DNA of 61,732 bases, from the IMG/VR virus record IMGVR_UViG_2534682252_000039; one strand, 5' to 3'. Positions 2,110 to 27,675 of the stretch are shown in pieces (positions within the stretch are counted from its first letter, which is position 1; every line of letters starts with the position of its first letter). This DNA is from a virus (Duplodnaviria > Heunggongvirae > Uroviricota > Caudoviricetes). A program made the position numbers and the translations under genes. The notes below the pieces were generated by a model, which saw nothing but the letters and a program-made list of their open reading frames with translations, made no database searches and had not been told where the DNA came from.

Positions 2110-3374
2110 CCAGAAAACCGTGGCGTGCGGGGAAGGATTTATCCACTGTTGTGGAGAATATGGAAATTGGCACCGGGCAGCGTGGTGACGGACGTCACGC
2201 ATTTGTGACCCGTGAGGAACTGGTTGGTCTTAAACTCGCCCGGCGTCGAACATCGGGTGGTGCCTCATATGCACTGAATCCGGGTATTGAGATTGACAGT
2301 ACTTTAATGACTGTTGATTTTCCCACAAAACCGCTGAATTTTAAGGCGACCGGTGGATTTGGCTCGGTTCTTCTTGAATGGGATATGCCTAATTATCGCG
2401 GACATTCACTGACTGAAATCTGGCGGGGTACGGAGGATGACCTTGCTGATGCAGTGCTGGTTGCCACGACGCCGGGGCAGGTTTACGGCGATCCGGTTGA
2501 CCCTGGCTGGTCGGGATTTTACTGGATACGTTTTGTTAACGCGGCAGGAGTGAAAGGTCCATGGAATGCTGAAAAAGGCACTCAGGCACAAACACAGATC
2601 GGCGTGAAGGCCATCATTGACCAGATCCGCGATGAGGCTGCAAAGTCGCCGGTTGTGTCCGAGCTGCGTAAAGAAATAAAAAACGCGCAGGGGCAGGCTG
2701 TAAAGGATGCTGCAATTAAGACAACCGAAGTTGTAGGGACTCTCAGGGAAGAAACGACAAGAACGATTGGTGGTATTGAAACCCGCATTAGCACACTGGA
2801 TTCGTCAACCAGTGAATCGCTTAATGAGGTCGACAAGCGCATCACTAAATTGGATAAAGAAGGCGGTGAAGCTTTTCTTGCAATGTGGTCAAAAAAAGCG
2901 GGAGTTGATGGTATCACTGCGGGGATCGGGATTGTCGCCGGAAAAGACAGTGAAGGCAGGCCTGTAAGTCAGGTTGCAATTTCTGCGTCGCAGTTGTTTG
3001 TCTTTGACCCGAATAATCCGGATAACACAGCCTATCCGTTTGCGGTATCAGGTGGCAAGGTAGTGATCCCGAAAGCGATGATTTATGACGCGGTGATTGA
3101 AACACTGGTGTCGCGGAAGGTTGTGGCGGATGAGGTAAAAGCCGGGGTAAGTATCACTTCGCCAGTTATCCGGAGTGCCGTTATTCAGAACGGAAACTTT
3201 CAGGTTGATTCTCAGGGTAACCTGAATATTGGAGGCCTTTTCAGTGTTACGTCACAAGGGCAACTGACAATTCGTTACTCTAATCAGAATGTAGGACTGG
3301 TGATCCGCAATGATAAAATTGAGGTTTATGACCAGAATGGACGACTGGCTGTTCGCATAGGCAGATTACGCTGA
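2106..3374 (+). CDS. Phage tail fibre / host-specificity-like protein, module 2
   Basis: Translationally coupled to upstream ORF; beta-rich C-terminus; sits where a J C-terminal domain or tail spike would be. Confidence 0.5.
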   Translation: MTRKPWRAGKDLSTVVENMEIGTGQRGDGRHAFVTREELVGLKLARRRTSGGASYALNPGIEIDSTLMTVDFPTKPLNFKATGGFGSVLLEWDMPNYRGHSLTEIWRGTEDDLADAVLVATTPGQVYGDPVDPGWSGFYWIRFVNAAGVKGPWNAEKGTQAQTQIGVKAIIDQIRDEAAKSPVVSELRKEIKNAQGQAVKDAAIKTTEVVGTLREETTRTIGGIETRISTLDSSTSESLNEVDKRITKLDKEGGEAFLAMWSKKAGVDGITAGIGIVAGKDSEGRPVSQVAISASQLFVFDPNNPDNTAYPFAVSGGKVVIPKAMIYDAVIETLVSRKVVADEVKAGVSITSPVIRSAVIQNGNFQVDSQGNLNIGGLFSVTSQGQLTIRYSNQNVGLVIRNDKIEVYDQNGRLAVRIGRLR

Positions 3375-3388
3375 TCAGGAGGTGAGTA

Positions 3389-3667
3389 TTGGAATACGGT
3401 TTTGCCATTTATAACAGAAATAACGTTAATGTTACGGGCGTGCTGACTCCAGTATTTTTCCTGGACAGATTTACAGCGGAGTCTGGCTCAAAGACGTACA
3501 CTAATAAACCCGACGGGAAATCATTGCAGGCTGTATGTTGTTTATTTCCCTGGAATAATGTATTTGCGGATCGGAAAGTACCGAAGATAACCATTAATGA
3601 CAATACGGTGACGTGGTCGAATCTTGAGCAGGGTATGGGATCTTATATTTATACATTCTGGGGATAA
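3389..3667 (+). CDS. Hypothetical protein with YG-x-x-I-Y-N repeat motif (low-GC moron)
   Basis: ORF track; motif MEYGFAIYN shared with next ORF. Confidence 0.35.
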   Translation: MEYGFAIYNRNNVNVTGVLTPVFFLDRFTAESGSKTYTNKPDGKSLQAVCCLFPWNNVFADRKVPKITINDNTVTWSNLEQGMGSYIYTFWG

Positions 3668-3672
3668 GTGTT

Positions 3673-4290
3673 ATGTACGGTTTGAGCATTATGAAGCCGG
3701 ATGGCAGCGTATGGATAAGTCCAGGTTTTACGCCGCAGTGTCTGATCAACAAAGGCACCATACCGGCGACTGAAAAGTCTTTTTTTAAAACATCAATCCC
3801 GTCAGGCAAAAGTTGTTTTTTCTTTATCAGAACAGAGAAGAAGGCCGATGTCATGTACACGCATGAACAGATTGATGGATATCATGCACTAAGGCTTCAT
3901 GTAATTGTCAGGGGAACGAACCCTGGTGTTACGACGGTTTATGCTTTCGCGAATATGGTTACTCCACCTTCTGAGTATGGTATCGCCATGTATAACCCGG
4001 ACGGTGAGATGATTTATCATGGCGAAATGATGCTGCTTGACGCGAAGTTAATACCTGTTGATATCAAATTTGAAAAGGACCTTGGATATCCATGCGCAAT
4101 CATGCCTGCACTGGTCGGGTATTATAACTGGAAAAGAACTCCTTATGATCGACCGATTTATACCACATCCACTGGTGCTACAGGAAATAAAATATATTCC
4201 TGTGAGCATTATTCCGGTGGTGCAACATGGGATATTCGAAAGCCGTATATAGATAAGGTCCTGGTTATTAATACATCAGTATATGATTAG
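3673..4290 (+). CDS. Hypothetical protein with YG-x-x-I/M-Y/K repeats
   Basis: MYGLSIMKPDG and EYGIAMYNPDGEMIY repeats; low GC. Confidence 0.4.
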   Translation: MYGLSIMKPDGSVWISPGFTPQCLINKGTIPATEKSFFKTSIPSGKSCFFFIRTEKKADVMYTHEQIDGYHALRLHVIVRGTNPGVTTVYAFANMVTPPSEYGIAMYNPDGEMIYHGEMMLLDAKLIPVDIKFEKDLGYPCAIMPALVGYYNWKRTPYDRPIYTTSTGATGNKIYSCEHYSGGATWDIRKPYIDKVLVINTSVYD

Positions 4291-8682: not shown

Positions 8683-8715
8683 TTCACGATATTCCATTAA
8701 TACCATTTCCTGATG

Positions 8716-8740
8716 CCCGGCCATTGTGCCGGGTTTTTTT
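8716..8740 (+). terminator. Intra-operon hairpin with T7 run (possible attenuator) between gene 4 and the giant gene
   Basis: CCCGGCcattgtGCCGGG + TTTTTTT; overlaps the first in-frame ATG at 8713. Confidence 0.5.
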
Positions 8741-8751
8741 ATGGAGTCTGT

Positions 8752-11700
8752 ATGGCCTATTCAGAGGAACAGCGTCCTGAGGCGCAACTCGGTAACCAGA
8801 ATCGTAACAGCCTGAACATTCAGCAACCCGGCGAAACTGACAGCTATGAAGCATTTTTCTCTGATCCGAATCGCTGGAAGGATAACAGTACGTCGTTCAG
8901 CCTGGGCGATGTATTGCCAACAATGGGTAAAGGTTTCGCCCAGTCCGTCCGGGGAACAGGGGAAATGGCCCGTGGACTCGGTGATGCGATGATTCAGAGC
9001 CCGGTAAAAACAGGGGCGCGTATTTTAAATGAGTTCAGCCGTATGGGGCTGCCGGGTGTCGCAACTGTGCAGGATATTTTTGCCGGTGGCAGCAGGGGGG
9101 CTGATGAGGTCATCGATACCCTGCCTGATGGCAAAAACGCGGTTACTGATACTGTCGGTAAAGGTCTGAAGGCAACCGGTAAGGCTGTCAGTGATGGTGC
9201 CAAAGCCACTGATGAATGGCTGACCGGTAAGATGTCGCCGGGTGCAGTTCGTGCGCTGAATACGCCGATGACCGAAGGCTATAATGATTCTGCGGTCTGG
9301 GTGGCGAAGGGTGTAAACCTGATTGGTGCGCTTGTACCTGATATGGTTGCTGGCGGTGTGGCTAGAAAGGTGGGTGATGTCACACTGCGAAAAATGCTGA
9401 CCGCCGGGCTGGAGAAAAAATACATCGCGGCAGGGATGCAGCCGGAAAGAGCCACGGCACTGGCAGCAGAAGCTGTCGATAAAAAAATGCCGGATTTATT
9501 CCAGGCGGGCCTGATCACCCATTCCACTGTAAGTGCACAGGGGCAGAGTGCAATGGCGGCAGCAGATGCTGTTCTTAATGCTGATTACTCTGAGCTGGCG
9601 CAGTCACCGAAATTTCAGCAGACGTTTTTGTCCATTGACGCCGACCCGCAGCACGCACAGCTTACTGATCGCCAGAAAATGGATCTGGCAAAAGAGCGTG
9701 TTGCCGATGAGGTGCGCGCGCAGCTGGCAACCGATCCTGAATTGCTGGCTGTGAATGCCATGGCGGCAAAACTGGGTGACGCACAACTGTTTAATCTGGT
9801 GACACGAGGCACAGCGAAGACCGTTAAAAGCGGCATTGTCAGAAATGCCACGGAACAGGGGGCGATTAATGCGGCGCAGGGCGGCTATTCACGCTATCAG
9901 GAAAACACGGCATTGCGTGAGACCGCCGGAATGGGTGTGTCACCGTGGGAGGGCGTGGCTGACGCAACGATCGAAGGTGCAGCCTTTGGTGCTGCGATGG
10001 GGGCTCCATTCGGTGCGGTTGCCGGATATCGTGGCAGACGTCAGGCCGCAGAAGAAACCGCCATGCGTGATGCTGAAACCGTGCAGCAGGACGACGCAGC
10101 CCCGCAACCAGAATCTGTTGATCCGGTGGCGCAGCAGCGTGAATCCATGCAGGGCATGAATCGCGAGCAGCTTCTGGAGCAGTATGCTGATGCGGATATG
10201 GCAACAGAGGGTGACGCATCCGCAGCTCATCGCCGGGAAGCTGCCAGCCAGTTGTTGAATGAACTGGACGAACAGACGAAGCGACAGGCTGTGATGAATG
10301 AGCTGAAGGCGAAGCCGCGTTCTGAACTGCTTGAGGAATACCGCAGACTCAGCCAGAAAGAGGGGCGCACCGAGACTGAAGAACAACAGTTTCAGGCAAT
10401 ACGAGAAGTCATTCGCCCACAACAGGAAGTGACGCCGGAAGCACAGTCACAGCCTGAAAATGCGGAGGATGGTAACGGGAGCATTTACCCGACGGTGCGG
10501 TTCCGGGACCCGAATGAAGTCCGCATTGAAATTAACGGGAATGGTGCGTCCAGACCAGCGGAACGCATTGAGAAGGTGCGCCCGGACAACCGTTATTTCA
10601 CGGATGAGAAAAGCGCCATGGGGAGTGATGTTTTCCGTAATGCCGCCGCCACCGGCCTGAAACCGTCCGTAGTGAAGAAAGGCGAGAATCAGTATGCCGT
10701 TGAAATGGATAATCCTGCGTTCTCTGAAGATGTGGCAACGGAAACCATTAACACCCTGGCTGACGGAGAGCGTATTGCTGATGCTGACCCGATGGAGCAG
10801 CCCGCGTTCATGCGTGACCCGCGATTCCGTGGTTTCACGGGGGATGATACGGAGGTACAGGCCCGCCTTGCCCGTGGCAACGCGCCGACGGCAGAGGAGC
10901 TTGTACGTTCACAGATGGCTGAAGGTGATGCCGGTCCGACAGCACAGGAGTTAACTGAGCGTCCACGCCTGCCCGCTCCCGGCGATATTCATCCCGGACA
11001 GGGATATCCGTTACCGGGAGAAGTGGCGCGTACGCCGGATGAAAATCAGGCCGGACGTGGTGGTCGTTTTACCACAACCGGTGAGGTTAAGGGCCAGAGT
11101 TTCCAGAAAGGACAAGCTCCGGCACCGGAAAACGCCGCTGGTCGCCAGGGGGAAACACTCGAGGGTGACATGGTTCGTCGTGGTCTGCCGTCACCGGATG
11201 CGCAGAACGCGACAGCACCGGTACGTGAAGGGCTACCGGCTCCTGACATTGCGCGTAATGTTCGTATGCCTCAGCCTGAATCACTTCCCCGCACTGTACG
11301 GGACTCACTGCCTGAGCTTGCACAGCAGGCAGAAGTACGCCGACAGGCCGGAGGAAATCGTGACATCCCGCAGCCTGAGACAATCGCACCTGAATCTGAA
11401 ACAACTGTCTCTACTGACAGGGAAGCTACCGTGCGCGGAGGTGAAGTCAGGGGCAAAAAAATTGAAGACTTTGGTGAAGAAATTAAGGGCGCGGCAAAAC
11501 ACCGTTATGCACAGCTTGCTGAAACACTGGGTAAAACGCTGGAAGACAGGGATTATGCCACGCAGCCGCTGAGCAAACTGTTCCCGAAACCGGACTACGC
11601 AAAACTGGCGAACGAAGGTGCTGATGCTGATACCCTGGCAATGATAGCGCTGTATCGTAGCGATATTCCGGCGAAGACGAAACACAATACGGCAGGCTGG

Positions 11701-14700
11701 GGGGAGAGCATAAAAAAAGTACGACACAGTGTATCGGAAATGCTGAACGGAACGGTCAGCGCGAAACGCCTCGCAGAATGGATGGAAGGCAGAATGCCCT
11801 CCCGTTACGCGGATACCTGGCAACTGTTACGCACTCTGCCACCCTCACAGATGGACAGGGCTTCTGCTTATCGGGTGGTATCGGGTGTGTATCAGGCGGC
11901 AGGAGGGAAGCGTTACGATCCGCCACAGAAACTTTATTCACTGCGCAATAAGGACAATAAGGGGAGTAACCTCTTTTTCTCGGAAAGCAGGGATGAATTA
12001 CTGGCAAAGGCGAAAGTCTGGTTTGCAGAGCAGGAGGAAAAATCACAGGCGAAAGGTGATGAAAAAACAGCACCGTCACCGGATGACAAAATCCGCTTTG
12101 ACGTTTACCGGAATACCCGCAGTGGCGATATTTTTATCGCTTACGGTAAAAACAAAATGCGGGTGAGAGGTGGCTTTAAGTCAGCCAGTGATGCGCGTAA
12201 GTACATTGATTCACATCGTGATGAGCTTGTTCGTCATGTGAAGGAGATGCGGGAGATTTCGCGTGAGGAGCAGCGCAACGCCACCAACCGCGACCGTACC
12301 GGACCAGAACGCCGCAAGGGGAATGTTTCACCGGAGCAGTTCAGTGATGCGTTTGGTTTCCGTGGTGTGCAGTTTGGTAACTACGTGGAAGGTCCGCGTC
12401 GTCAGGCTGATTTGAACCGGGCTTATGACTCGCTGCATGACCTTGCGGAAGTACTGAATGTACCGACAAAAGCGCTTTCCCTGAACGGTCGTCTTGGCCT
12501 GGCATTTGGTGCCCGTGGTAAGGGTAAGGCGGCGGCACACTATGAGTCAGGTGAGGTGGCAATCAACCTGACAAAAGGTAACGGACCGGGTGCGCTGGCG
12601 CACGAATGGTTCCATTCTCTGGATAATTATTTTGGTCGTTATGACGTTTCCAATGACGGGAAAATTACGTCAGGTGGCGACTTTATGACGGAAGCACAGC
12701 GTGTCAGGCGCATATTTAAAGACGGCAGGTATGTTGATGCTGAATATCCGGTACGTCAGGAGGTTTACGACGCTTTTAAAGGTGTGATTCAGGCCATTAA
12801 AAACAGTGACATGCCGCGTCGTTCAGCGCTTCTCGATGAGGTGCGCTCAAAACCGTACTGGTCAACGGATGTTGAAATGGCGGCACGTGCCTTTGAGCGT
12901 TATGTTCAGGATAAGGCGCGTATGGCTGGCGTGGAGAATGATTATCTGGTCAATATCCGTAAGGCACCTGAGCACAACACAGATAACACCTACGCTTATC
13001 CGACGAATGCGGAACTGGATGGCGGTATTCGTGAGGCATTCGATCACCTGTTCCGCACCCTGAAAACCCGTGAGACGGACAAGGGCGTTGCGTTTTATTC
13101 CCGTAAGGGCGTTACCCGCACACCTGAAGGTAATCTCATTTCGGATGTTAACCGTAGTGCGGAAGCCAAAGGCAGCCCGGTCCCGCAGGTTGAAGCGGTT
13201 GCCCGTGGCGTGATGAGCGGCATTAAGGACAGTGACCTGAAGGTCCGTGTGGTGAAGTCACAGAAAGAGGCTGAAGCGCTGGCGGGTGAATTGTTCGATG
13301 GTTACGGCAGGGTGCACGCATTCTATCGTCCGGATAAACGAGAAATTGTCCTGGTGGCGGATAACATCCCTGACGGGCGGACCGTTCGCGAGAAGCTGCG
13401 TCACGAGATCATTCACCATGCCATGGAGCATGTTGTCACACCAGCGGAATATCAGACGATTATCAAAACCGTGCTGAAAACCCGCGACAGTGATAACGTC
13501 ACCATCCGTGAAGCCTGGCGTAAGGTTGATGCTTCCTATGGTAAGGAATCACCGGAAGTACAGGCGGGTGAATTTCTGGCACATATGGCGGAGAAACAGC
13601 CGAATAAATTCGTGGCGGCATGGGAGCGTGTTGTTGCCCTGGTCAAAGGGGTACTGCGTCGTACGGGGTTACTGAAGCCGACGGAACTGAACGATATCAG
13701 ACTTGTTCGCGAGACCATCCGTACGTTAGGCCAGCGTGTGCGGGAAGGTTACACGCCGCGTGAGGATGGCGCGGGCGCATCGTTTCAGTACTCCCGTAGT
13801 GGTAAACGTGATCCGTTCAAAGTGCCGGAAGGTGAGGGCGAGCGTTATCGTGATGACCTTGCCAGAATGATGAAATCTCTGCGCACCACAGATTTAACGG
13901 TAAACATCGGGCGTACGCCGCCGGTATTGCGTCACCTTGGTGCACCGGATTTGCCGCTGGTTATTTCCCGCGATACTGTGCGGAAGGCCACCAATGGTGT
14001 GAAACATGTGGTGCCGATGGATGTTATCGAGAGACTACCGGAACTGATGCACGATCCGGATGCAATTTACCGCTCAGCGACAGAAAGAAATGCGGTTGTG
14101 ATGCTGCTTGATGCCGTGGATAAAAATGGTGATCCGGTGGTGTCAGCGGTACACATGAAGGCTGTCCGGTCGCGTCTGGAAATCAACAAGGTAGCTTCTG
14201 TTTACGGTACAGAAAATGGAAAAAAACTGAAGAGTATGGAAATGACCGGGTTAACGTTGTACCGGAGAGAAAAATTAAGCCGCGATAACCTTCTGCACAG
14301 AGGGCTCCAATTGCCCAAAGGGGAACATTCTTATCGCGGCTCTGCGGATAAAATACTCTATCCTGAAGATATTCGCAAGGGGCCGTATTACTCCCGTACC
14401 AGCAGTCTGACACCGGAAGAGACAATTGCATCGCGTTTTGTGCGCCAGATGCAGGATAAATTCCAGGTGCTGAAAGCTGTTCAGGAGAATATCCGTAAAA
14501 CTGGCGGCAAAGTGGACGACAGTAACAACGCTTATATGGCGGAAGAACTCTTCCACGGGAAGGCGGAAAACGACCTGAACGTGATGAAGGAGCGCTACGT
14601 TCAGCCACTGGCTAAATTACTGGCGGACTACAAAATTGCGCAGGCCGATCTGGATGAGTACCTCTACGCCCGTCACGCGCCGGAACGTAACGCGCATATC

Positions 14701-17133
14701 GCGAAAATCAACCCGAAAATGCCGGACGGCGGTTCGGGGATGACCAACGCGGAAGCGGCGGAAATCATGCAGCGTGTACGTAACAGTGGCAAACAGGCAC
14801 AGTATGACCGTCTGGCAGGGATTATTGACGATATGCTGGCCCGTCGCCGTGAGCTTATCCGTGAGGCCGGACTTGAAGAGAACGGTGTGGTGGATGCCTG
14901 GCAGAACGCCTACCGTTACTACGTTCCCCTGAAAGGTCAGGATGTTGACGGTGTGGTGTCACTGCCCCGTACAGGTAAGGGCTTCACCATCGGCGGACGT
15001 GAAAGCAGGCAGGCCATGGGGCGTGCATCCCGGGCACAGTCTCCGTCCACTCAGGCGATACAGGACCTGAGCGAATCGCTGATCCGCCATCGCAAAAACG
15101 AAGTGGGTAACGCCTTCCTGAAACTGGTGCAGGATAATCCCGACAAGGATTACTGGCAGGTATTCACCGATGACAGACCGGATACCATGCGGACGATTGC
15201 AGAGCGCAAGGACCAGGAAACTGGTGAAACCATTCGCGAAGTTGTCGAACGCCCTGTACCGATGGCAATGATGGCAGACCGGTACTTCACCACCAAAAAG
15301 AACGGCAAAACGTACTACATCAAACTCCATGATCCGCGCCTGATGCGTGCGATGAAGAGTATGGGACCGGAAACCAGCAATGCCTTTGTTCGTACGCTGG
15401 GGAAAGTTAACCGCTTCCTGGCAACGGTGAACACGTCGTATAACCCGGAATTCCTGGTCAGTAACTTCATCCGTGACGTGCAGACGGCGGTGATGAACCT
15501 GAAGGCGGAGCAGGGAAGGAGCGACGGTAAACTGAAAGGGCTGGATAACTTATCCGCCCTGGCTGTGGTGAAAGACAGCCGTTCTGCCATGTCAGCCGTA
15601 TACGCCAGTCTGCGTGGTAAAACCCTCACGGGAAAAGGTGCACAGTGGCAGAAGGTGTGGAAAGAGTTTGTTGAGGACGGAGGGAAAACCGGCTGGTTTA
15701 ACATGGGTGACCTTGAAGGCCAGCAGAAGGAAATGGATCGCCTTGTCTCACTGGCGAAGGGGGGATGGAAAGGCCAGAGTATCGGTGCATGGAATTCGTT
15801 CCTTAACCTTGTCGAGGATGCCAACGGTGCGGTTGAAAACGCTCTGCGTCTTTCTGCCTATAAGCACGCCCGTGATGCCGGTTTGTCACGCCAGCAGGCG
15901 GCGTCTCTTGCCAAAAACATGACGGTGAACTTTAACCGTCGTGGTGAGCAGGGGGCGCTGATGAATTCGCTGTACATGTTCGCCAACGCCAGCATTCAGG
16001 GAACGGCAAATCTGGTGAGAACGCTCGGACATCTTAATGGTGAGGGACCTTTACTGGAGCGCCTTCGCTGGAAGAATCTGAATGTTCCGCAGAAAATCGC
16101 GCTTGCCGCTGTGGGAGCAGGTTATCTGCTTGGCTCGCTTAACCGCAGCGTGGCGGGTGAGGATGATGACGGGGTTAACTGGTATGACAAGGTGCCGTCT
16201 CATGTGAAAGAGCGTAACCTCGTCATTATGAAATCGGTGTTCGGGGGCAAGGCCGGAGAGTACTGGAGTATTCCTCTGCCTTACGGGTACAACGTTTTCT
16301 TCCTGCTCGGGCATACTGCTGAAGGTGTGGCGGCGGGTGACCTGACGGCGTCCCGTGCTGCCGGTAATGTTGTTGGTGGTGTGCTTGGTGCATTCAGCCC
16401 GATTGGCAGTGAGACGTCGGAAACACTGTCCGGGGCATTGCTGAAAAATGCAGCGCCGACCATTCTGCGTCCGTTTGCGAACCTTGCCATGAATGAAAAC
16501 TTCATGGGGGCGCAGATTTACCAGGAGAACATGCCGTTTGGTACACCAAAACCTGACAGCCAGCTGGGAAGACGTTCAACGCCAGAAGCGTACAAGGCGT
16601 TTGCATCCTGGCTGAATGCGTTCTCAGGTGGCAGCCAGTACCGTCCCGGCGCGGTGGATATCACACCGGAATCGCTGAAATTCTGGATTGACTATATCTC
16701 CGGAGGGACAGGGCGCTTCATTTCCAAAACCACGGATGCGGCGGTGAAATCGCTGAATGGTATTGATATACCGGAACAGCAGGTGCCCTTCCTGGGGAAA
16801 ATTTCGGGGGAGGTGATGCCGTATGCAGACCAGCAGAAGATGTACGACCGGATGACAGAGATTGCGCAGTATCACGCAGAGCTGAAGAGTCTGACCGGTG
16901 CAGAAAGAACGGCGTTCATTGACGAGAACAACGGAAAATTGTCGATGAACGGGCTTATGCAGGATACCCGGAAGAGACTGAAGGATTTGCGTAAACAGCG
17001 TGATGCCATTTACGCCGACAGTACTCTCAGTCTGGCGCAACAGTCGGCGATGGTGAAATCGGTAGAGCGGGATATGAAAATTGCCGTGGATCGGTTTAAC
17101 CGCGAGTACAACAAAAAAGTGGGAGTGGATTAA
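8752..17133 (+). CDS. Giant multidomain protein (~2,790 aa) with zincin-like HEWFH motif; candidate virion-packaged polyvalent protein
   Basis: Uninterrupted ORF 8713..17133; preferred start ATG 8752 after GGAG; HEWFH at ~12601-12615; RHEIIHHAMEH at ~13399-13431; glycine-zipper segment near 9975-10030. Confidence 0.8.
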   Translation: MAYSEEQRPEAQLGNQNRNSLNIQQPGETDSYEAFFSDPNRWKDNSTSFSLGDVLPTMGKGFAQSVRGTGEMARGLGDAMIQSPVKTGARILNEFSRMGLPGVATVQDIFAGGSRGADEVIDTLPDGKNAVTDTVGKGLKATGKAVSDGAKATDEWLTGKMSPGAVRALNTPMTEGYNDSAVWVAKGVNLIGALVPDMVAGGVARKVGDVTLRKMLTAGLEKKYIAAGMQPERATALAAEAVDKKMPDLFQAGLITHSTVSAQGQSAMAAADAVLNADYSELAQSPKFQQTFLSIDADPQHAQLTDRQKMDLAKERVADEVRAQLATDPELLAVNAMAAKLGDAQLFNLVTRGTAKTVKSGIVRNATEQGAINAAQGGYSRYQENTALRETAGMGVSPWEGVADATIEGAAFGAAMGAPFGAVAGYRGRRQAAEETAMRDAETVQQDDAAPQPESVDPVAQQRESMQGMNREQLLEQYADADMATEGDASAAHRREAASQLLNELDEQTKRQAVMNELKAKPRSELLEEYRRLSQKEGRTETEEQQFQAIREVIRPQQEVTPEAQSQPENAEDGNGSIYPTVRFRDPNEVRIEINGNGASRPAERIEKVRPDNRYFTDEKSAMGSDVFRNAAATGLKPSVVKKGENQYAVEMDNPAFSEDVATETINTLADGERIADADPMEQPAFMRDPRFRGFTGDDTEVQARLARGNAPTAEELVRSQMAEGDAGPTAQELTERPRLPAPGDIHPGQGYPLPGEVARTPDENQAGRGGRFTTTGEVKGQSFQKGQAPAPENAAGRQGETLEGDMVRRGLPSPDAQNATAPVREGLPAPDIARNVRMPQPESLPRTVRDSLPELAQQAEVRRQAGGNRDIPQPETIAPESETTVSTDREATVRGGEVRGKKIEDFGEEIKGAAKHRYAQLAETLGKTLEDRDYATQPLSKLFPKPDYAKLANEGADADTLAMIALYRSDIPAKTKHNTAGWGESIKKVRHSVSEMLNGTVSAKRLAEWMEGRMPSRYADTWQLLRTLPPSQMDRASAYRVVSGVYQAAGGKRYDPPQKLYSLRNKDNKGSNLFFSESRDELLAKAKVWFAEQEEKSQAKGDEKTAPSPDDKIRFDVYRNTRSGDIFIAYGKNKMRVRGGFKSASDARKYIDSHRDELVRHVKEMREISREEQRNATNRDRTGPERRKGNVSPEQFSDAFGFRGVQFGNYVEGPRRQADLNRAYDSLHDLAEVLNVPTKALSLNGRLGLAFGARGKGKAAAHYESGEVAINLTKGNGPGALAHEWFHSLDNYFGRYDVSNDGKITSGGDFMTEAQRVRRIFKDGRYVDAEYPVRQEVYDAFKGVIQAIKNSDMPRRSALLDEVRSKPYWSTDVEMAARAFERYVQDKARMAGVENDYLVNIRKAPEHNTDNTYAYPTNAELDGGIREAFDHLFRTLKTRETDKGVAFYSRKGVTRTPEGNLISDVNRSAEAKGSPVPQVEAVARGVMSGIKDSDLKVRVVKSQKEAEALAGELFDGYGRVHAFYRPDKREIVLVADNIPDGRTVREKLRHEIIHHAMEHVVTPAEYQTIIKTVLKTRDSDNVTIREAWRKVDASYGKESPEVQAGEFLAHMAEKQPNKFVAAWERVVALVKGVLRRTGLLKPTELNDIRLVRETIRTLGQRVREGYTPREDGAGASFQYSRSGKRDPFKVPEGEGERYRDDLARMMKSLRTTDLTVNIGRTPPVLRHLGAPDLPLVISRDTVRKATNGVKHVVPMDVIERLPELMHDPDAIYRSATERNAVVMLLDAVDKNGDPVVSAVHMKAVRSRLEINKVASVYGTENGKKLKSMEMTGLTLYRREKLSRDNLLHRGLQLPKGEHSYRGSADKILYPEDIRKGPYYSRTSSLTPEETIASRFVRQMQDKFQVLKAVQENIRKTGGKVDDSNNAYMAEELFHGKAENDLNVMKERYVQPLAKLLADYKIAQADLDEYLYARHAPERNAHIAKINPKMPDGGSGMTNAEAAEIMQRVRNSGKQAQYDRLAGIIDDMLARRRELIREAGLEENGVVDAWQNAYRYYVPLKGQDVDGVVSLPRTGKGFTIGGRESRQAMGRASRAQSPSTQAIQDLSESLIRHRKNEVGNAFLKLVQDNPDKDYWQVFTDDRPDTMRTIAERKDQETGETIREVVERPVPMAMMADRYFTTKKNGKTYYIKLHDPRLMRAMKSMGPETSNAFVRTLGKVNRFLATVNTSYNPEFLVSNFIRDVQTAVMNLKAEQGRSDGKLKGLDNLSALAVVKDSRSAMSAVYASLRGKTLTGKGAQWQKVWKEFVEDGGKTGWFNMGDLEGQQKEMDRLVSLAKGGWKGQSIGAWNSFLNLVEDANGAVENALRLSAYKHARDAGLSRQQAASLAKNMTVNFNRRGEQGALMNSLYMFANASIQGTANLVRTLGHLNGEGPLLERLRWKNLNVPQKIALAAVGAGYLLGSLNRSVAGEDDDGVNWYDKVPSHVKERNLVIMKSVFGGKAGEYWSIPLPYGYNVFFLLGHTAEGVAAGDLTASRAAGNVVGGVLGAFSPIGSETSETLSGALLKNAAPTILRPFANLAMNENFMGAQIYQENMPFGTPKPDSQLGRRSTPEAYKAFASWLNAFSGGSQYRPGAVDITPESLKFWIDYISGGTGRFISKTTDAAVKSLNGIDIPEQQVPFLGKISGEVMPYADQQKMYDRMTEIAQYHAELKSLTGAERTAFIDENNGKLSMNGLMQDTRKRLKDLRKQRDAIYADSTLSLAQQSAMVKSVERDMKIAVDRFNREYNKKVGVD

Positions 17134-19911: not shown

Positions 19912-20158
19912 GGATTACTACGCCCCCTCTGCTAATTGCGCGAGCTGGATCCCCTGGTTCCATGCCGTCAATACCGAAGGCTTCGAAAAATGCATCTATT
20001 GCCTTTTGGCGTTGCTCCTGCTTACGGCGTTTATTCCATTTTTTCATGAACAACAGTGACAGCCATCGTCCGCTGCAGAACATGATGTAGAAATAACCAA
20101 GGAGCGCTAGGCCGGTGTTCAGGGCTGTATCGATCGTTATCGTGGTGTTGATGTTCAC
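19874..20158 (-). CDS. Hypothetical small membrane protein
   Basis: Hydrophobic N-terminal segment. Confidence 0.4.
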   Translation of the reverse strand: MNINTTITIDTALNTGLALLGYFYIMFCSGRWLSLLFMKKWNKRRKQEQRQKAIDAFFEAFGIDGMEPGDPARAISRGGVVILVYRSEEKNEQD

Positions 20159-20376
20159 TTCACACCTCTCTGTTTGTTGATAAGTTCAATATCCTGCTGG
20201 CAACTGGCGCAAGCTCTGCATCCACGAACAGCCAGGCGTCGCCGCTCATCTATCGGATCGCCACACTCGCAACAATGAGTAGCAGATGGGGCATTACTAT
20301 CGGATTTGTATTTTTGCAGGGAGAGATTGCGCTGCAATTCTTCGATTTCAGCGGCGTTGTCGATGATATCTGCCAT
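20155..20376 (-). CDS. TraR/DksA-family C4 zinc-finger protein
   Basis: CCECGDPIDERRRLAVRGCRACASCQ. Confidence 0.6.
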   Translation of the reverse strand: MADIIDNAAEIEELQRNLSLQKYKSDSNAPSATHCCECGDPIDERRRLAVRGCRACASCQQDIELINKQRGVK

Positions 20377-20423: not shown

Positions 20424-21053
20424 TTAGAATTCGAATTGCCTTGCCCGCAGGCTTTTCAGCATTGGTCTGGCCCGCTGAACTACGAAACTCGACTGGTCAA
20501 GCCGTGCCGCCTCTCTCAGTAGCACATCTCTGTTCTTCGTCACCATGTAGATGGTCTCAAACGCAATGTCATACAGCTTGTTCGTGTATGAGGAGTTCAG
20601 CTCTTTCATGATCGGATACAGGTGTTTGCTGAGGTCCTGGGCTTTTTCCATCCAGAGTTGCATGTAGCAGAGGAGGATGATTTCCTCGTCTGTGAATTGT
20701 TGCTGTGGTTCTGCTTGTGCCGACTGCATGTTGCGAAGTTTCTTTTCGCACTCGATGAAGTATCTGCGTATCTGTCGGCCTTTTTCGTTACGCTCTACCA
20801 TCGCCGTTTCTTTGGCTGTATCGAGGGTAAGGTGGTAGTCTTTTTTCCCTCGCCCATAACCTATTTCCCGTTTCTGGGAAATAGCTATATAGTCCTGATT
20901 TTCAACGAATCCGTACTCTTCAATACGTTCTGTAATCCACGATGCAAAGCGTTTACCTACTCCAAGAAAAGTATGTAAATCACGGGCATTAACGAGAAGA
21001 GTGGTTTCGTTGGCGATAGTGCCGTTGAATACGGGGATGAGTTGACTGGTCAT
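20424..21053 (-). CDS. Phage antirepressor-like protein (AntA N-terminal domain)
   Basis: N-terminal IPVFNG...ARDLHTFLGVGKRFASWITERIEEYGFVENQDY. Confidence 0.65.
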   Translation of the reverse strand: MTSQLIPVFNGTIANETTLLVNARDLHTFLGVGKRFASWITERIEEYGFVENQDYIAISQKREIGYGRGKKDYHLTLDTAKETAMVERNEKGRQIRRYFIECEKKLRNMQSAQAEPQQQFTDEEIILLCYMQLWMEKAQDLSKHLYPIMKELNSSYTNKLYDIAFETIYMVTKNRDVLLREAARLDQSSFVVQRARPMLKSLRARQFEF

Positions 21054-21640: not shown

Positions 21641-22011
21641 TTCTAACCACTCCTCGTGTTATCTCTATTCCGTAGCGATTCGCTACCACTTATTTAAAGA
21701 TAAGACGTCCTTTTCAGAGTGCAAATTTCACAACCACTTATTTGATTTATAACAACTTTCACAAGCACGCAATTTTGTCGCAAAATGACACATTTTTATC
21801 TCATCGCGTTTTTTTAATCATAAGAGCGGCTTATGGATAATTATTGGAGATGATATCTATTCTCGCTAAGAAGCTGTTGCAGGATATTACCAAACGCGGG
21901 TAGAAACACGTCAGTTCACTAAGCTTAGTCCCACGTAGCGAAAATATGGCAGCCGCCATACGCCGCGTTAATTCTAGCAATATGATGTCTATACCCAGAC
22001 GGAGGTCAGTA

Positions 22012-22119
22012 ATGGCAAACCATCGAGGCGGTTCCGGCAATTTTGCAGAAGACCGCGAAAGAGCATCAGAAGCAGGTAAAAAAGGTGGCAAGAGCAGTCA
22101 CGGCAAAAGCGACAACTAG
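22012..22119 (+). CDS. ymdF: Small KGG-repeat stress protein, YmdF-like (35 aa), absent from the ORF track
   Basis: GGAGGT RBS; MANHRGGSGNFAEDRERASEAGKKGGKSSHGKSDN. Confidence 0.6.
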   Translation: MANHRGGSGNFAEDRERASEAGKKGGKSSHGKSDN

Positions 22120-22863: not shown

Positions 22864-23601
22864 TCACTCACTCTCTTTTAAACCAGTTTTAACTGTTTGT
22901 GGTTTTGGGTAAGGCTGGACTTTGAATAGCTTTGTGTTGAGGCGTTTTCTGGCCCTCTTGTTCAGAAACCGGATGTAACGAAACTGACGGAATTTATGAA
23001 CACTGGCTCTGTCGATATTAGCCCTCAGATGTTCACCTCGCTGTCCGCCTCGTTTAATGGCATTCCTGCAAATCTCGTGATACCACTCGCCATCAAGTTC
23101 ATAGAATGTTGATTCGTGGCTGCCTACATAATCAAAATTGCTTGCCTGATACACGACACCAAGACAGCCACAACGCTCATCTGCAAACGACTGAACCCAC
23201 TGTACCTGCGGATAAAGCTGCCTGATTAGCTTGAGCGCGTAACTGATTGCCCTTGATTCGGAGTTTCTCGGCATACAGTCATGCAGCCATAACCGGTTAA
23301 GCTCCATATATTCACGGTTCCGCGTGCCCGTTACGACGCGTGCACCACTGTTTGGATTAAGGGCATAGCCCCATTGCATTACGCCAACCAGCTCCCGTTC
23401 TGAAAATATGCCCAGATGAAGGTAGGAGTTATTTACGAAACGGTGGCTGTAATGTTTATTGACGATGACCAGTCTGGCCAGCCAGCAACTTATTGTCTCA
23501 ACCCGCAACTCACGGGAGCCATAACCAACGATATTGTCGTTATAGCGAATAAGTTCAGGCGTGCTGATGATACGGGATGTGACTTGCTTTCTGTTCCCCA
23601 C
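22864..23601 (-). CDS. mom: Mom-like DNA modification protein
   Basis: Size and position after com at the phage right end; overlaps com 3' end. Confidence 0.8.
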
Positions 23602-23755
23602 GACAGGATTTCCTTGTGTATGTGGGGTGCTCTGTGGCGCTCGGAGATGTGATTTGATTGAGGGTTTTACAGCGCGGACATTTTACTTCCAGATAACTGA
23701 AACTGGCCCGTGCCAGTAGCTTATTGCAGTGTCGGCACCGTATGTTTCGATACAT
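23555..23755 (-). CDS. com: Com zinc-finger translational activator of mom
   Basis: [14 protein letters not shown]...VKCPRCKTL matches the Mu Com Cys4 pattern; track ORF begins at an upstream non-ATG codon. Confidence 0.8.
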
Positions 23756-23950
23756 GGCCGCATAACCTCCTGCTTTGTTGTTGATGCCTTTCTCATGCAA
23801 TCGATCGACAAAAACGATCGATTCGATTTGTTTAATTGATACAACAAATAGATTGAAAAGTCATCAACAATGATTCAGGGCGGTGATTATTTACTTAAAG
23901 AAAACGAAGACTTAGGTGGTGAAAACGATCATAAAATGATCATTTTATTG
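23756..23950 (-). promoter_or_regulatory. mom regulatory region with clustered GATC (Dam) sites
   Basis: TCGATCGAcaaaaaCGATCGAT at ~23801-23822 and GATCATaaaaTGATCA at ~23929-23945. Confidence 0.45.
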
Positions 23951-24015
23951 ACTTTTTATACAGTGAAGGTAGGATCGCGCGTATATGTAGTATGTTTCAA
24001 ATCAACAGGATACTA

Positions 24016-24046
24016 CATAAAGGGAGGTCCAGATAGTTACAGCTAT
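24016..24046. repeat. 11-bp perfect inverted repeat AGGTCCAGATA-N8-TATCTGGACCT upstream of the mom region
   Basis: Seen in sequence. Confidence 0.4.
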
Positions 24047-24156
24047 CTGGACCTGGAACAAATTCGCATCAATGCTTTACTTCGAGCTCGTGTCGTATCC
24101 TATGATATTCCCCGGTCTCCTGTAAAGCAGAGATGCATAAAAAGGAGATCTTTATC

Positions 24157-24327
24157 ATGGATAAAGAGCCTGTTTGCCCTGCCTGTAAGACTCCCTTACA
24201 GCTCATCTATCGCCGTTCTCGATCTCAAAATGGCAAGACATACAAACCCCAAAATGCGTCCTGTTTCAGGATGCTGATATGTCCTGCCTGTTCTCCCCGG
24301 AGGGAAAGTACACAAAACGTGCATTAA
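24157..24327 (+). CDS. Small Cys4 zinc-ribbon protein, convergent with phage genes
   Basis: AAGGAG RBS; MDKEPVCPACKTPL...CPACS. Confidence 0.3.
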   Translation: MDKEPVCPACKTPLQLIYRRSRSQNGKTYKPQNASCFRMLICPACSPRRESTQNVH

Positions 24328-24365: not shown

Positions 24366-24611
24366 TTACATCATAGTACCGTCAGTTCCGGGCTGAACCG
24401 GCTCTGGTTGCTCTACGGCTTGAGGCTCATTCTCCGTGCTGTTTTCAGCCGGAGAATGGCCAACCATTCGGGCCAGCACTTCATCAACATATGCGTCGAT
24501 TTGTGCCTCAAAATCCTTGCGAACCTGCGCCTTCAGCACGCGGTTCACTTCTTCAGAATAAAGTGCCTGTTTGACAAGCTCTTCAGTAACCGTGCCTTTA
24601 ATCTCTGGCAT
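24366..24611 (-). CDS. Small acidic hypothetical protein (cargo)
   Basis: ORF track. Confidence 0.4.
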   Translation of the reverse strand: MPEIKGTVTEELVKQALYSEEVNRVLKAQVRKDFEAQIDAYVDEVLARMVGHSPAENSTENEPQAVEQPEPVQPGTDGTMM

Positions 24612-24646
24612 GAATATTCTCCTTTTGCAGGTATATTGCCCCGTTA

Positions 24647-24829
24647 TCAGAGCGGGGTCGGGTCGTTTGGGGATGACGGTGCCTGTGCTGTTTTACTGAG
24701 TTTTTCAGCTGCCGCATCATCAATTTTACGGCGAATATAATTTCTGATGACCTTATAACCGCCGCTCACCAGATATAACGCACTGACCACTGCGCAGAAA
24801 TAAAGCAGCATTGTATGAACGAATGTCAT
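24647..24829 (-). CDS. Small membrane protein (cargo)
   Basis: Single hydrophobic helix LLYFCAVVSALYLV. Confidence 0.4.
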   Translation of the reverse strand: MTFVHTMLLYFCAVVSALYLVSGGYKVIRNYIRRKIDDAAAEKLSKTAQAPSSPNDPTPL

Positions 24830-24933
24830 ATAACCTTACCTTTGATATTGACTACATAATTCGTTATCGGGTAAAAACATCGAAGCGACTGATAACCACT
24901 ACTTCGGGAGTATTTTTATTTTCCTTTATGGGT

Positions 24934-24968
24934 TAGGTAGCTCCCGCCAGCCATATCATGACCGGCGG
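24934..24968 (+). terminator. Hairpin CCCGCCag...ccGGCGGG + T7 just beyond the esterase stop, opposite strand
   Basis: Seen in sequence. Confidence 0.4.
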
Positions 24969-24975
24969 GATTTTT

Positions 24976-27015
24976 TTATTCTGTTACCGCTTTTTTCACT
25001 TCCACCACAATGCTGTCAATCAGCACCGGGTAAGTTGCATTTTTTGTGATATCCGTTACGCGGAGTTTGTCCACCGGGAAAGTTCCTACTGGTGACTGCG
25101 TCAGGGTAAACGCGGCACCATCCTGACCATCAATAACCGGAATAACCTGAAGGCTGTTATTTCCTGCAAAACGGAAGGCCAGCGTATGCCATTCATTATC
25201 AAATGCACCAAAGGTTCCCAGTTTCTGGTTATTTGTTGCCACTTTTGCATTGTGGTACATCACATTCAGGTCTTTTGCGTCTGTCTGGATGTAGAACGAT
25301 GCCAGCAGATTATTCCCTGCATCCCCTGTCAGGGTGACACCCTGCGGCAGAGAGGAAACCGGCCAGTAAAGCGCCATGACATACTGGTTTGCCACCAGGT
25401 CGCCCGGTACTTTAAAACGACAACTGATTAAACCACCATTTTTCAGCAGTTCAGCACCAGTACCGGCATCATGATCCAGATACCAGGATGATTTACCTGT
25501 TTCCTTGGTCAGTTTCATTGCCTTACCACCTGTGCCTCCTGTATCACTGATAATTTCAGCTTTACCGCCAGCCGGCTCCCAGCCCTGGGCTTTCAGATTT
25601 CCTTCTGACTCACTGACACGGTAAGACAGCAGTGTTGTGGTTACTGCTTCAGTTTCTGAAGGTGACGGCACTGGTGCTTCAGTTTCAGAAGATGGAACAT
25701 CGGCTTTTACTGTGGTTCGCCCCGCATGAGTCAGAACTGCCGTGGCCAGACGGTCGGAAATAATCCCACGACGTGCCCATGAACTGAAATGGCTGGCCCG
25801 GTCCGTAGATGTCCAGGTGGCGGCACTGTTACGCCACGTTGAGCCGTAATAACCAATGGATTCAATATCCGGGTCTTCTGCCGGATTGTTGGTGGGTACA
25901 TTCGCGCCATTTTCATCTGTCATTAATGGGACGAAATGAATGTTTTTATCTGTTTTATTTTTGTAGCCGTCATAGATTGCCTGGTATGCCTGTTCGTTTT
26001 TCTGTTTCCAGAAATACGTGGTATCACCACAAATCCACGGAACGCCAGCAGCACTGCCACCGGTACACTGTTCCGCCTGTTCAGCCAGGTCTGCGCGGAA
26101 TTTTTCCACCATCGCCAGAAACAGCGCAGAATGCTCCGTCGGCTTCGCATCAATATCAAACTCGCCCTGCATCCACACCACAGCAAGCAGGCGGTTTTTC
26201 GGGTTCTTCGCCAGTGCCGCTTTTGTCCGGCTGATTAAGTCCTTATACAGCGGCTTATCCACACCCCAGCGGGCTGAGTCCTCTGAAGCACCCGTGCTGT
26301 CACTGTACGTGCCGTCAGCACCCGCCGTGAATGCAGAACCACCACGGCAGCAGGGAACCAGCAGAATCCCCGCATCTGCCGGAATAAACGGCAGCAGTTT
26401 TTTGGCAATGTGAAGCCCCTGACCCACGGTGCCATATTGCCCTTTAGCCACATCCGCTTTCGGGTGATTTTTTCCACTCATATCCTGCACATCATGCAGA
26501 CAGTGGTCGGCCAGAATGATGTCGTTATACTGACAGGCTTTACCTCCCGGCGTGACTGTACTGCGACGGGCTAACTGCATAATACGCGGTTCGGGGCGGT
26601 CATATGTCTCCGGCAGTGGCAGACCTTCACCGTAAGCCATACCGTTTGACTGACCAGCAAGAACCACCACGTAATACCAGGAAGGGGAGCTGGAAGCAGT
26701 TTCATTTCCTGACGGACGGGTATGTGTTTCAGCATTATCCCAGTCTGACGGTTCAGCAGTACCGGCAACATCAGCACTTAACGGAATGACCGCACCAATA
26801 CCCGCTCCGGTAATTTCCACACTCGGATCACCGGATACTGGCCTTACCCACAGGCAATCCCGTGTATTAAAACTGATGAGACAGTCAGCAAATGTCATTC
26901 CTCCTTTTGTTTCGGCCGGAGGAAAGGGAGCCTCAAGAAATGCCGCTGTACCACCGGAAACTTTAACAGTAAAGTTTCCGGGCATTGATGATAGTTGAAC
27001 CCATTTGGACGTCAT
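24976..27015 (-). CDS. SASA/SGNH-type carbohydrate O-acetylesterase with C-terminal beta-rich domain (NanS-p-like)
   Basis: Catalytic-block motifs VLAGQSNGMAYGE and VWMQGEFD; C-terminal ~250 aa beta-rich. Confidence 0.7.
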   Translation of the reverse strand: MTSKWVQLSSMPGNFTVKVSGGTAAFLEAPFPPAETKGGMTFADCLISFNTRDCLWVRPVSGDPSVEITGAGIGAVIPLSADVAGTAEPSDWDNAETHTRPSGNETASSSPSWYYVVVLAGQSNGMAYGEGLPLPETYDRPEPRIMQLARRSTVTPGGKACQYNDIILADHCLHDVQDMSGKNHPKADVAKGQYGTVGQGLHIAKKLLPFIPADAGILLVPCCRGGSAFTAGADGTYSDSTGASEDSARWGVDKPLYKDLISRTKAALAKNPKNRLLAVVWMQGEFDIDAKPTEHSALFLAMVEKFRADLAEQAEQCTGGSAAGVPWICGDTTYFWKQKNEQAYQAIYDGYKNKTDKNIHFVPLMTDENGANVPTNNPAEDPDIESIGYYGSTWRNSAATWTSTDRASHFSSWARRGIISDRLATAVLTHAGRTTVKADVPSSETEAPVPSPSETEAVTTTLLSYRVSESEGNLKAQGWEPAGGKAEIISDTGGTGGKAMKLTKETGKSSWYLDHDAGTGAELLKNGGLISCRFKVPGDLVANQYVMALYWPVSSLPQGVTLTGDAGNNLLASFYIQTDAKDLNVMYHNAKVATNNQKLGTFGAFDNEWHTLAFRFAGNNSLQVIPVIDGQDGAAFTLTQSPVGTFPVDKLRVTDITKNATYPVLIDSIVVEVKKAVTE

Positions 27016-27114
27016 AATAATCAGCCTGTTCCTGAATAAACTGAATTATCATATCCACAGACCGATAAACGCCATTTTGCGTTAATTCAGTAAAGGCCCA
27101 ACAAAGAGAGCGTC

Positions 27115-27675
27115 TTATTTTTCCGAAACGCTCGCAGGATAATAACGATAAAGGGTTGAAAGACCGATATCAAAAATAAGTGCCACCTGTCTTCGACTGA
27201 CACCCCCGGCCAGTAAACGCCCGACCTGCTCGTATTGTTCCTGCGTGAGACGGCGGGGTCTGCCGCCGGTTCGTCCCCTTTCACGGGCAGCTGCAAGACC
27301 AGCCCGTGTCCGTTCGACAATTAATTCACGCTCCATTTCTGCCAGCGCACCCATTATGTGAAAAAAGAAGCGCCCCATGGGGGTTGACGTATCAATGTTG
27401 TCAGTAAAACTACGAAAATTTATCCCCTGTTGCTGTAATTCATCTGTCAGCGCAACAAGGTGGCGCATACTGCGCCCCAGCCTGTCCAGTTTCCAGACCA
27501 TCAGCGTGTCACCGGGTTTTAGTTTCTTCAGTGCCCGCTTCAGTCCCGGCCGCTGTGTCGTTTTACCACTCATTTTGTCTTCAAAAATCTGCTCACATCC
27601 TGCACATTCCAGCGCATTTCTTTGTAAACCTGTGTTCTGGTCATTTGTTGATACGCGTATATAGCCAATCAGCAT
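27115..27675 (-). CDS. gin: Serine DNA invertase (Gin/Hin/Pin/Cin family)
   Basis: MLIGYIRVSTNDQNTGLQ with catalytic Ser; C-terminal HTH; adjacent to inversion site. Confidence 0.9.
   Translation of the reverse strand: MLIGYIRVSTNDQNTGLQRNALECAGCEQIFEDKMSGKTTQRPGLKRALKKLKPGDTLMVWKLDRLGRSMRHLVALTDELQQQGINFRSFTDNIDTSTPMGRFFFHIMGALAEMERELIVERTRAGLAAARERGRTGGRPRRLTQEQYEQVGRLLAGGVSRRQVALIFDIGLSTLYRYYPASVSEK

Follow-up and report, generated by a model that had tools for sequence, protein, structure and literature searches.

The esterase gene between gin and com

We analysed a stretch of viral DNA of 61,732 nucleotides (IMG/VR record IMGVR_UViG_2534682252_000039), hereafter called the window, in which all positions below are counted, and in particular a gene for a 679-residue esterase that lies between the DNA invertase gene gin and the com-mom genes of a Mu-like prophage. 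This prophage extends from about 22734 to the right end of the window with its late genes on the minus strand, and the hallmarks of a Mu-like right end are present, namely the invertible fibre segment, gin, com, mom and a prophage end at varying host sites. The esterase gene is followed by two small genes (DUF1378 and DUF826), and this trio as well as gin, com and mom are all on the minus strand (Table 1). From the stop of gin to the start of com, the distance is 3,359 bp in the window vs 94 bp in Mu (NC_000929), confirming the figure of about 3.3 kb in a preliminary description of this DNA. The 679-residue protein and the two small proteins of that description were also all found in place, but an open reading frame (ORF) on the opposite strand, a homologue of ECs_4996, had been overlooked.

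In the search against Pfam, residues 116-312 of the protein matched SASA (PF03629) with 46.2 bits (cut-off, 24.8), and residues 104-428 match the solved structure of chromosomal NanS (YjhS; 3PT5, chain residues 11-331) end to end with E = 5.1e-118. The SGNH blocks in the form defined for NanS, RASH/RSSH included (PMC10462455), are all kept: namely, GQSN (S123), CRGGS (G225), QGE (Q283) and RASH (H409). Furthermore, residues 459-674 match the solved jelly-roll C-terminal domain of NanS-p (6YP6, E = 1e-111), in which aromatic residues are proposed to form the sugar site of a lectin-like domain (PMC10462455); Y545, Y550, Y575 and F646, the equivalents of Y510, Y515, Y540 and F611, are all kept. 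Relative to NanS-p of the Shiga toxin (Stx) phage 933W, the identity is 73% over residues 65-678, and nucleotide similarity starts at 26661. Judged from these comparisons, the product is a member of the NanS-p sialate 9-O-acetylesterase family with an intact active site. The preliminary description had read the protein as a SASA/SGNH esterase from its GQSN and QGE blocks, with a beta-rich C-terminal domain, and had proposed a profile search against SASA and NanS. The esterase fold was indeed found with 3PT5, 6YP6 and Pfam, in agreement with the motifs, the beta-rich part proved to be DUF6645 with the 6YP6 jelly-roll, and the call can be sharpened to a NanS-p sialate O-acetylesterase on the basis of Pfam, the NanS and NanS-p structure matches, the identity to 933W and the motif table. 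The enzyme family, and even the exact gene, were already in the databases: the protein is identical to WP_077632359.1, which is named “DUF6645 domain-containing protein” at NCBI and belongs to a cluster (90% identity, 1,046 members) in which others are named “sialate O-acetylesterase”.

Chromosomal NanS is a periplasmic protein equipped with a signal peptide. In the window protein, no signal-peptide-like hydrophobic segment was found, the top 19-residue Kyte-Doolittle mean in the first 60 residues being 0.64, and the “secreted” glycan esterase suggested by the preliminary description is hence unsupported. Also, the solved NanS chain (337 residues) represents the catalytic core alone and lacks the extra N- and C-terminal domains (PMC10462455). 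NanS-p of lambdoid Stx phages (L0105/z1466 of 933W and vb_24B_21, i.e., gp84, of phi24B) resembles the window protein in the four catalytic blocks, the four aromatic residues of the sugar site, the lack of a signal peptide, and DUF1378 and then DUF826 downstream; with 933W, the amino acid identity is 81% in the SASA core and 78% in DUF6645. Nonetheless, the lambdoid proteins have an N-terminal DUF1737, instead of which an unrelated all-beta domain of about 78 residues and a longer linker are found in the window protein. In phi24B, DUF1737 is the domain for binding to the capsid, and gp84 was located on central hexons by cryo-electron microscopy and proteomics (bioRxiv 10.64898/2026.04.10.717836). 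The genes are placed differently as well, lambdoid nanS-p being between Q/stx and the holin gene S, whereas the window gene belongs to a Mu-type transposable phage and has gin on one side and com-mom on the other.

The small genes are also shared with lambdoid phages. Downstream of nanS-p in 933W are an unannotated ORF for DUF1378, the product of which is 53% identical to the DUF1378 protein of the window, DUF826 (Wp43) in the same relative position as in the window, and then the holin gene S; DUF1378 and DUF826 come after nanS-p in other Stx phages, too (PMC10462455). Given the same order in 933W amid entirely different neighbours, nanS-p/DUF1378/DUF826 is considered to be a syntenic block common to lambdoid and Mu-like phages. 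At the level of DNA, the small genes and the spacer to com matched, in the phage collection, only two Mu-like elements inserted in Stx phages. The DUF1378 protein has one predicted N-terminal transmembrane helix (19-residue Kyte-Doolittle mean of 2.0 at residues 3-21), and none of the esterase, DUF1378, DUF826 and ECs_4996 proteins matched the PADLOC library of anti-phage defence.

As for the N-terminal domain (N-domain), Pfam gave no match to residues 1-78, DUF1737 (PF08410) included, whereas 933W NanS-p scores DUF1737 with 4.3e-18; residues 1-80 are 10% identical to the N-terminus of the 933W protein. AlphaFold2 predicted a six-stranded beta domain at residues 1-78 and then a disordered linker of about 33 residues, and such an all-beta fold would be unlike the helix plus three strands of DUF1737. 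The same strand topology was predicted for a 29%-identical N-domain from Salmonella, with the input alignments being shallow (four sequences) in both cases. When 1.84 billion representative proteins were exhaustively searched with HMMER, five matches to the N-domain were obtained, four of which are N-terminal fragments of esterases with 29-100% identity. The fifth (P0005; 1,445 residues, matched in nine stretches) is a repeat protein rich in Ala, Gly, Thr and Val and was treated as compositional. A further type with 59% identity, from Shigella and E. coli, came out of a profile search. In total, the N-domain occurs in three types (A, B, and C) down to 29% identity, and its convincing relatives are only the esterase N-termini of Mu-like prophages; where the context is known, the gene is just downstream of a gin-type invertase, and the esterase on the Salmonella contig lies within a Mu-like cluster of tail and baseplate genes. 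No match to the N-domain was obtained by scanning species-representative genomes (types A and B, then type C), nor by scanning metagenomes and IMG/VR for type C, and no similarity was seen to any of the ORFs in the window. Comparisons of the fold led to cupin/jelly-roll barrels of a generic kind and to phage proteins without a name, about 90 residues long, which gave no functional lead, and a weak match to phrog_4772 (E = 0.006) was noticed.

Table 1. Features of the module and its flanks in the window (pLDDT, predicted local distance difference test; AF2, AlphaFold2)
Feature	Position	Strand	Evidence or remark
gin, DNA invertase for the invertible fibre segment; flanks the module upstream	27115-27675	-	Resolvase 5.8e-51, HTH_7; phrog_125 DNA invertase
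gin-esterase spacer, 99 bp; N-domain types A and B share short conserved blocks	27016-27114	-	Upstream-region alignment
Mu-type nanS-p, 679-residue ORF, intact, stop codon included	24976-27015	-	phrog_143, 1026 bits (PHROGs)
N-terminal domain, residues 1-78; all-beta, lineage-specific, in place of DUF1737	26782-27015	-	AF2 pLDDT 74-88, six strands
Linker 1, residues 79-112; Ser/Thr/Pro/Asp-rich, predicted disordered, ends ASSSPS	26680-26781	-	pLDDT 36-43
SGNH/SASA catalytic domain, residues 113-430; S123, G225, Q283-G-E, H409	25726-26679	-	PF03629
Linker 2, residues 431-458; Pro/Ser/Thr/Glu-rich	25642-25725	-	Poorly conserved, 7-32% identity between variants
C-terminal lectin-like jelly-roll domain DUF6645, residues 459-679	24979-25641	-	PF20350 4.1e-70
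DUF1378, 60-residue protein	24647-24829	-	PF07125 1.2e-38
DUF826, 81-residue protein, acidic and soluble	24366-24611	-	PF05696 2.1e-15
ECs_4996 homologue, frameshifted; last piece of the variable slot	23870-24327	+	phrog_26524, function unknown
com-mom upstream region, conserved backbone resumes	23756-23864	-	GATC sites at 23803 and 23816
com	23555-23755	-	Zn_ribbon_Com 3.3e-12
mom	22864-23601	-	Mom 4.5e-77

Distribution and recombination of the module

Prophage Sp18 of E. coli O157:H7 Sakai has the same genes in the same order (ECs_4992 to ECs_4998, with the trio being ECs_4993-ECs_4995) at 96-100% protein identity per gene or domain, and there is no substantive difference from the window; ECs_4996 is nonetheless intact (154 residues) in Sakai but frameshifted in the window, and RefSeq marks it as “frameshifted” in a locus that is 100% identical to the window. 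The 5.1-kb stretch as a whole was found at a coverage of at least 80% in 168 of 5,426 complete E. coli genomes, and among the matches listed, most are O157:H7 and some are O26 and O111:H8. The sites in the chromosome vary, as they should for a phage that transposes: the prophage interrupts a C-terminal fragment of a Xan_ur_permease (Pfam) in the window, a gene of an Ig-like protein in 2010C-3347, and sorM in Sakai. The interrupted permease is presumably rutG.

In the IMG/VR contigs carrying mom with at least 95% identity, the cassette genes were present upstream of com without exception (26/26), whereas the cassette was found in none of the 54 contigs with mom of 69-83% identity, 15 of which have gin abutting com as in Mu. 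This survey of viral contigs was used to assess the adjacency of gin and com instead of a concatenated gin and com-mom query, which hit no genome at a coverage of at least 80%; a diverged Mu copy would have reached a coverage of only about 65%, so that genomes with the classical adjacency may have been passed over. In the phage collection, furthermore, the two elements inserted in Stx phages were the only Mu-like records with a match to the esterase region, and the matches of the com-mom region to Mu, D108, SfMu and Yersinia vB_YpM phages were confined to mom (about 71% identity). When the N-domain loci in IMG/VR were inspected, all (34/34) were arranged as fibre, (gin), esterase, DUF1378, DUF826, com and mom as far as the contigs extend, the exceptions being variants with a C5 methyltransferase or with hybrid lambdoid or insertion sequence content downstream. 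The esterase ORF is intact at about 680 residues in 27 of the 32 cases, and ratios of nonsynonymous to synonymous substitution rates (dN/dS) of 0.05-0.25 across all domains of Mu-type nanS-p, with 0.05-0.10 in the N-domain, indicate purifying selection. On these sequence data, the module is a fixed feature of the Sp18-like Mu lineage and not an odd recent cargo.

The “inserted cargo” of the preliminary description is thus overstated, given that the position is constant in the Sp18-like lineage, Sakai Sp18 included. That description had also regarded the gene as unusual for a Mu-like phage, a view that routine presence here in reference Mu-like phages would contradict. It is upheld by the isolated Muviruses in the phage collection, which are without the gene, and by the other lineages (0/54), but the gene is routine in the Sp18 lineage (168 genomes, 26/26 contigs). 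Three of the 32 esterase ORFs are shortened, namely to 523 residues in locus L012 (4261 onward), 499 in L024 (2271 onward), and 318 in L036 (1959 onward); judged from these ORFs, the module is occasionally decaying.

Traces of exchange were seen within the gene. Between the window and locus L017, the identity is 99% across the baseplate and fibre genes and 95-100% through gin, the N-domain and linker 1, drops sharply to 77% and then lower at about 26690 (the boundary of the linker and SASA), and is back to 100% at about 24600, between DUF1378 and DUF826. The two proteins are 67% identical in SASA and 37% in the C-terminal domain, and the catalytic body of the window is actually nearer to that of 933W than to other Mu-type alleles, to which its SASA core is 67-70% identical. 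As far as these alignments tell, the catalytic body is exchanged and the N-domain stays behind with the Mu backbone.

Two further loci are hybrids of Mu-like and lambdoid sequences. In L060 (3540-5513), an esterase bearing DUF1737 turns 100% identical to the type-B Mu allele from the middle of SASA, and the identity of 100% continues through DUF1378, DUF826, com and mom; upstream are RusA-like, Q-like and methylase genes, as judged from translations without a Pfam check. In L026 (3545-8859), Mu fibre genes, the Mu N-domain and the SASA core are followed by DUF1378 and DUF826 of the lambdoid type and then by ORFs whose translations resemble holin, lysozyme and spanin. L060 and L026 are two contigs of one IMG genome (2617270962), in which an assembly chimera is possible. 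Their sequences imply recombination, probably an inversion, between lambdoid and Mu-like prophages via the paralogous esterase genes; homologous recombination in the esterase core would join the two prophages and swap the N-terminal domains. What is new here is an undescribed N-domain replacing the capsid anchor, the fixed place of the gene within a single Mu-like lineage, and its link to lambdoid nanS-p by recombination.

Proposed role of the esterase

We consider it likely that the region is an accessory module of an Sp18-like Mu-type transposable prophage and encodes a sialate 9-O-acetylesterase that is released by lysis and serves the lysogens. Lambdoid NanS-p alleles de-O-acetylate 5-N-acetyl-9-O-acetylneuraminic acid (Neu5,9Ac2) and mucin glycans, and their lysogens grow on Neu5,9Ac2 (PMC8065619). 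By analogy, the SGNH core, with the nucleophile S123, H409 and the oxyanion hole of G225 and Q283, would remove O-acetyl groups from Neu5,9Ac2 on mucin glycans, while the lectin-like jelly-roll on its flexible linker would keep the enzyme on the substrate. The enzyme would be made in the cytoplasm, and since it has no signal peptide, release by lysis is the most likely route; this would take place in the gut lumen upon lysis of some of the lysogens by the phage, and the enzyme might also travel on particles. De-O-acetylation would then lift the block on sialidases and sialic acid catabolism, by which surviving lysogens might gain usable sialic acid. The N-domain, a separate beta domain on a disordered linker, would belong to the Mu backbone, and the catalytic body would be swapped with other nanS-p alleles, lambdoid ones included.

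Several points nonetheless weigh against this role. Sp18 is not inducible with mitomycin (PMC2669165), and release by lysis may be rare. Other nanS-p copies exist in the host, with up to 12 matching places per genome, so that one more may bring little extra benefit. In the literature, we found no paper on ECs_4993-ECs_4995, which are annotated as “hypothetical protein” in Sakai, or on the module. Also, no promoter could be assigned to the esterase by scan or alignment: the consensus scan for sigma-70 promoters and terminators near the gin-esterase spacer was not above the level of shuffled sequences, the pattern of the Mu C-protein site (TTAT-N6-ATAA) had no match in the prophage, and the alignment of the upstream regions gave conserved blocks without a clear promoter.

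Alternatively, the N-domain might anchor the esterase and its lectin-like domain on the head or tail of the Mu-type phage and thereby make the particle receptor-destroying and mucus-binding, a possibility that we regard as tentative and that would refine, rather than exclude, a lysis-released enzyme serving lysogens. The precedent is gp84 of phi24B as the capsid decoration protein held via DUF1737; at the same position of the window protein, there are a different but constrained domain and a disordered linker. Swaps of the catalytic body leave the N-domain with the phage backbone, it is restricted to Mu-like prophages in its three diverged types, and the gene is preceded by the fibre module on the strand of the late genes. 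The best reading of the N-domain, in analogy to DUF1737, is an adaptor specific to the phage type. The term “virion-associated” in the preliminary description is thus plausible, solely through the analogy with gp84, but the DUF1737 anchor of gp84 is absent and an unrelated domain takes its place. More generally, and just as tentatively, NanS-p might be a plug-in cassette of esterase and lectin that phages of unrelated morphotypes, a podovirus and a Mu-type phage, mount on their particles through their own adaptor domains and that is swapped by homologous recombination in the SASA core. If so, it would correspond, in phages, to the viral hemagglutinin-esterases and govern the behaviour of particles in the O-acetylated mucus of the gut. 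According to PMC3266934, the viral proteins combine a lectin domain with a sialate-9-O-acetylesterase acting on sialoglycans of mucus and cell surfaces; those of corona-, toro- and influenza C/D viruses are a functional analogue only, with no homology claimed, and the display on virions is hypothetical for the window protein.

A modifier of host receptors is less likely and indeed improbable; it would de-O-acetylate the O-antigen or a sialic acid capsule for adsorption or superinfection exclusion, as do tailspike esterases. To our knowledge, no sialic acid is present in the O-antigen of O157, a main host. The core, furthermore, matches the sialate-specific NanS closely (E = 5e-118), the residues of the lectin site are those of NanS-p, and the 679-residue protein matched none of the tail-fibre and tailspike families in Pfam, with a weak PHROG match to “tail protein” (4.3e-05) being located inside the SASA core. 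These observations outweigh the position of the esterase next to the invertible fibre genes, the occurrence of an acetyltransferase (Acyl_transf_3) and extra side tail fibres in the same slot of other Mu-like lineages, and the suggestion of such a role for NanS-p in a review (PMC8065619). Also less likely, and in our view doubtful, is a passive cargo that was recently captured from an Stx phage and has no function for the Mu-like phage; while isolated Muviruses in the phage collection are without the gene, the order of the trio is identical to that in lambdoid phages, and lambdoid and Mu-type copies do recombine, DNA identity reaches only 81% with the nearest lambdoid allele sequenced, no lambdoid DNA matches the small genes, the gene has its own N-terminal domain, its position is kept across types A, B and C, including the Salmonella Mu-like prophage, and most ORFs are intact and under purifying selection.

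With NanS-p esterases, enterohaemorrhagic E. coli can use the O-acetylated sialic acids of mucin as food, and NanS-p also decorates the capsid of the main Stx phage type according to the 2026 preprint. At this locus, an unrelated type of phage has taken up the same enzyme body with another N-terminal adaptor, and Mu-like and lambdoid prophages of the same genomes recombine in the homologous cores. If the N-domain binds to Mu-type particles, the display of a mucus-directed esterase would be a general modular trait of phages and not a peculiarity of Stx phages. The module is, in addition, an extra copy of nanS-p that is unmentioned in the surveys of lambdoid prophages found, and represents a stretch of homology able to drive rearrangement between prophages in the genomes of E. 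coli strains that produce Shiga toxin.

Neighbouring genes and variants of the slot

The window gin is 74.5% identical to Mu gin in nucleotides, and the backbone from 23864 to 22864 is 94.9% identical to that of type-B phages. The right end of the prophage at about 22734 has a shared end sequence (TGTATAGCGCGGCG). The stretch of the ECs_4996 homologue (23870-24327) is AT-rich and absent from type-B phages, and a hairpin with a 12-bp stem is inside it at 24025-24054. As a candidate scar of insertion, the sequence at 23840-23809 was compared with the cluster of the gin stop and GATC sites in Mu, but the resemblance was too weak to count (local alignment score of 22).

Several variants were noticed among the related loci. 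In the type-B variants L025, L026, L030, L033 and L039-L041, gin was lost with about 40 nt of its 3' end left; the fibre-assembly gene in the invertible segment and the esterase are retained in these natural variants, and the fibre segment is presumably locked in one orientation. The Salmonella Mu-like prophage (L005) has two small ORFs at 9426-9910 between gin and the esterase, which match phrog_6330 and phrog_20491; the latter shows a weak match to an Xre-like helix-turn-helix, and E. coli has no counterpart there. In L004, a close relative of Mu-like type (Mu_JNE082796 in the Stx2c phage LC727881), a C5 cytosine DNA methyltransferase (PF00145, 1.4e-37) at 3169-4032 is in the place of mom and corresponds to 22864-23588 of the window, with gin, the esterase, DUF1378, DUF826 and com being kept; in this element, one anti-restriction modification gene is exchanged for another. 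In the other Mu-like lineages with mom of 69-83% identity, the slot between the fibre genes and com is occupied by different cargo linked to the surface, for instance an Acyl_transf_3 acetyltransferase on the opposite strand, extra side tail fibres like lambda stf (phage_tail_N), and a DUF1353 protein (L065, 5542-6663; L088, 3867-6158; L102, 2981-6145; L064, 5853-6245). The slot looks like a general site for accessory genes related to glycans or receptors.

Outside the Mu-like prophage, a small ORF at 21946-22119, which we take to be ymdF-like, is situated between this prophage and another one. Positions 1-21100 of the window resemble the end of this second prophage, which is like 933W/phi24B and about 1.5 kb away from the Mu-like prophage. 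It encodes a tail-tip protein (2106-3374), a TraR-type zinc finger protein (20155-20376), an AntA antirepressor (20424-21053), and a polyvalent protein of 2,806 residues (8713-17133) with LPD and MuF_C domains, which may be compared with the large ejection protein gp47 of phi24B.

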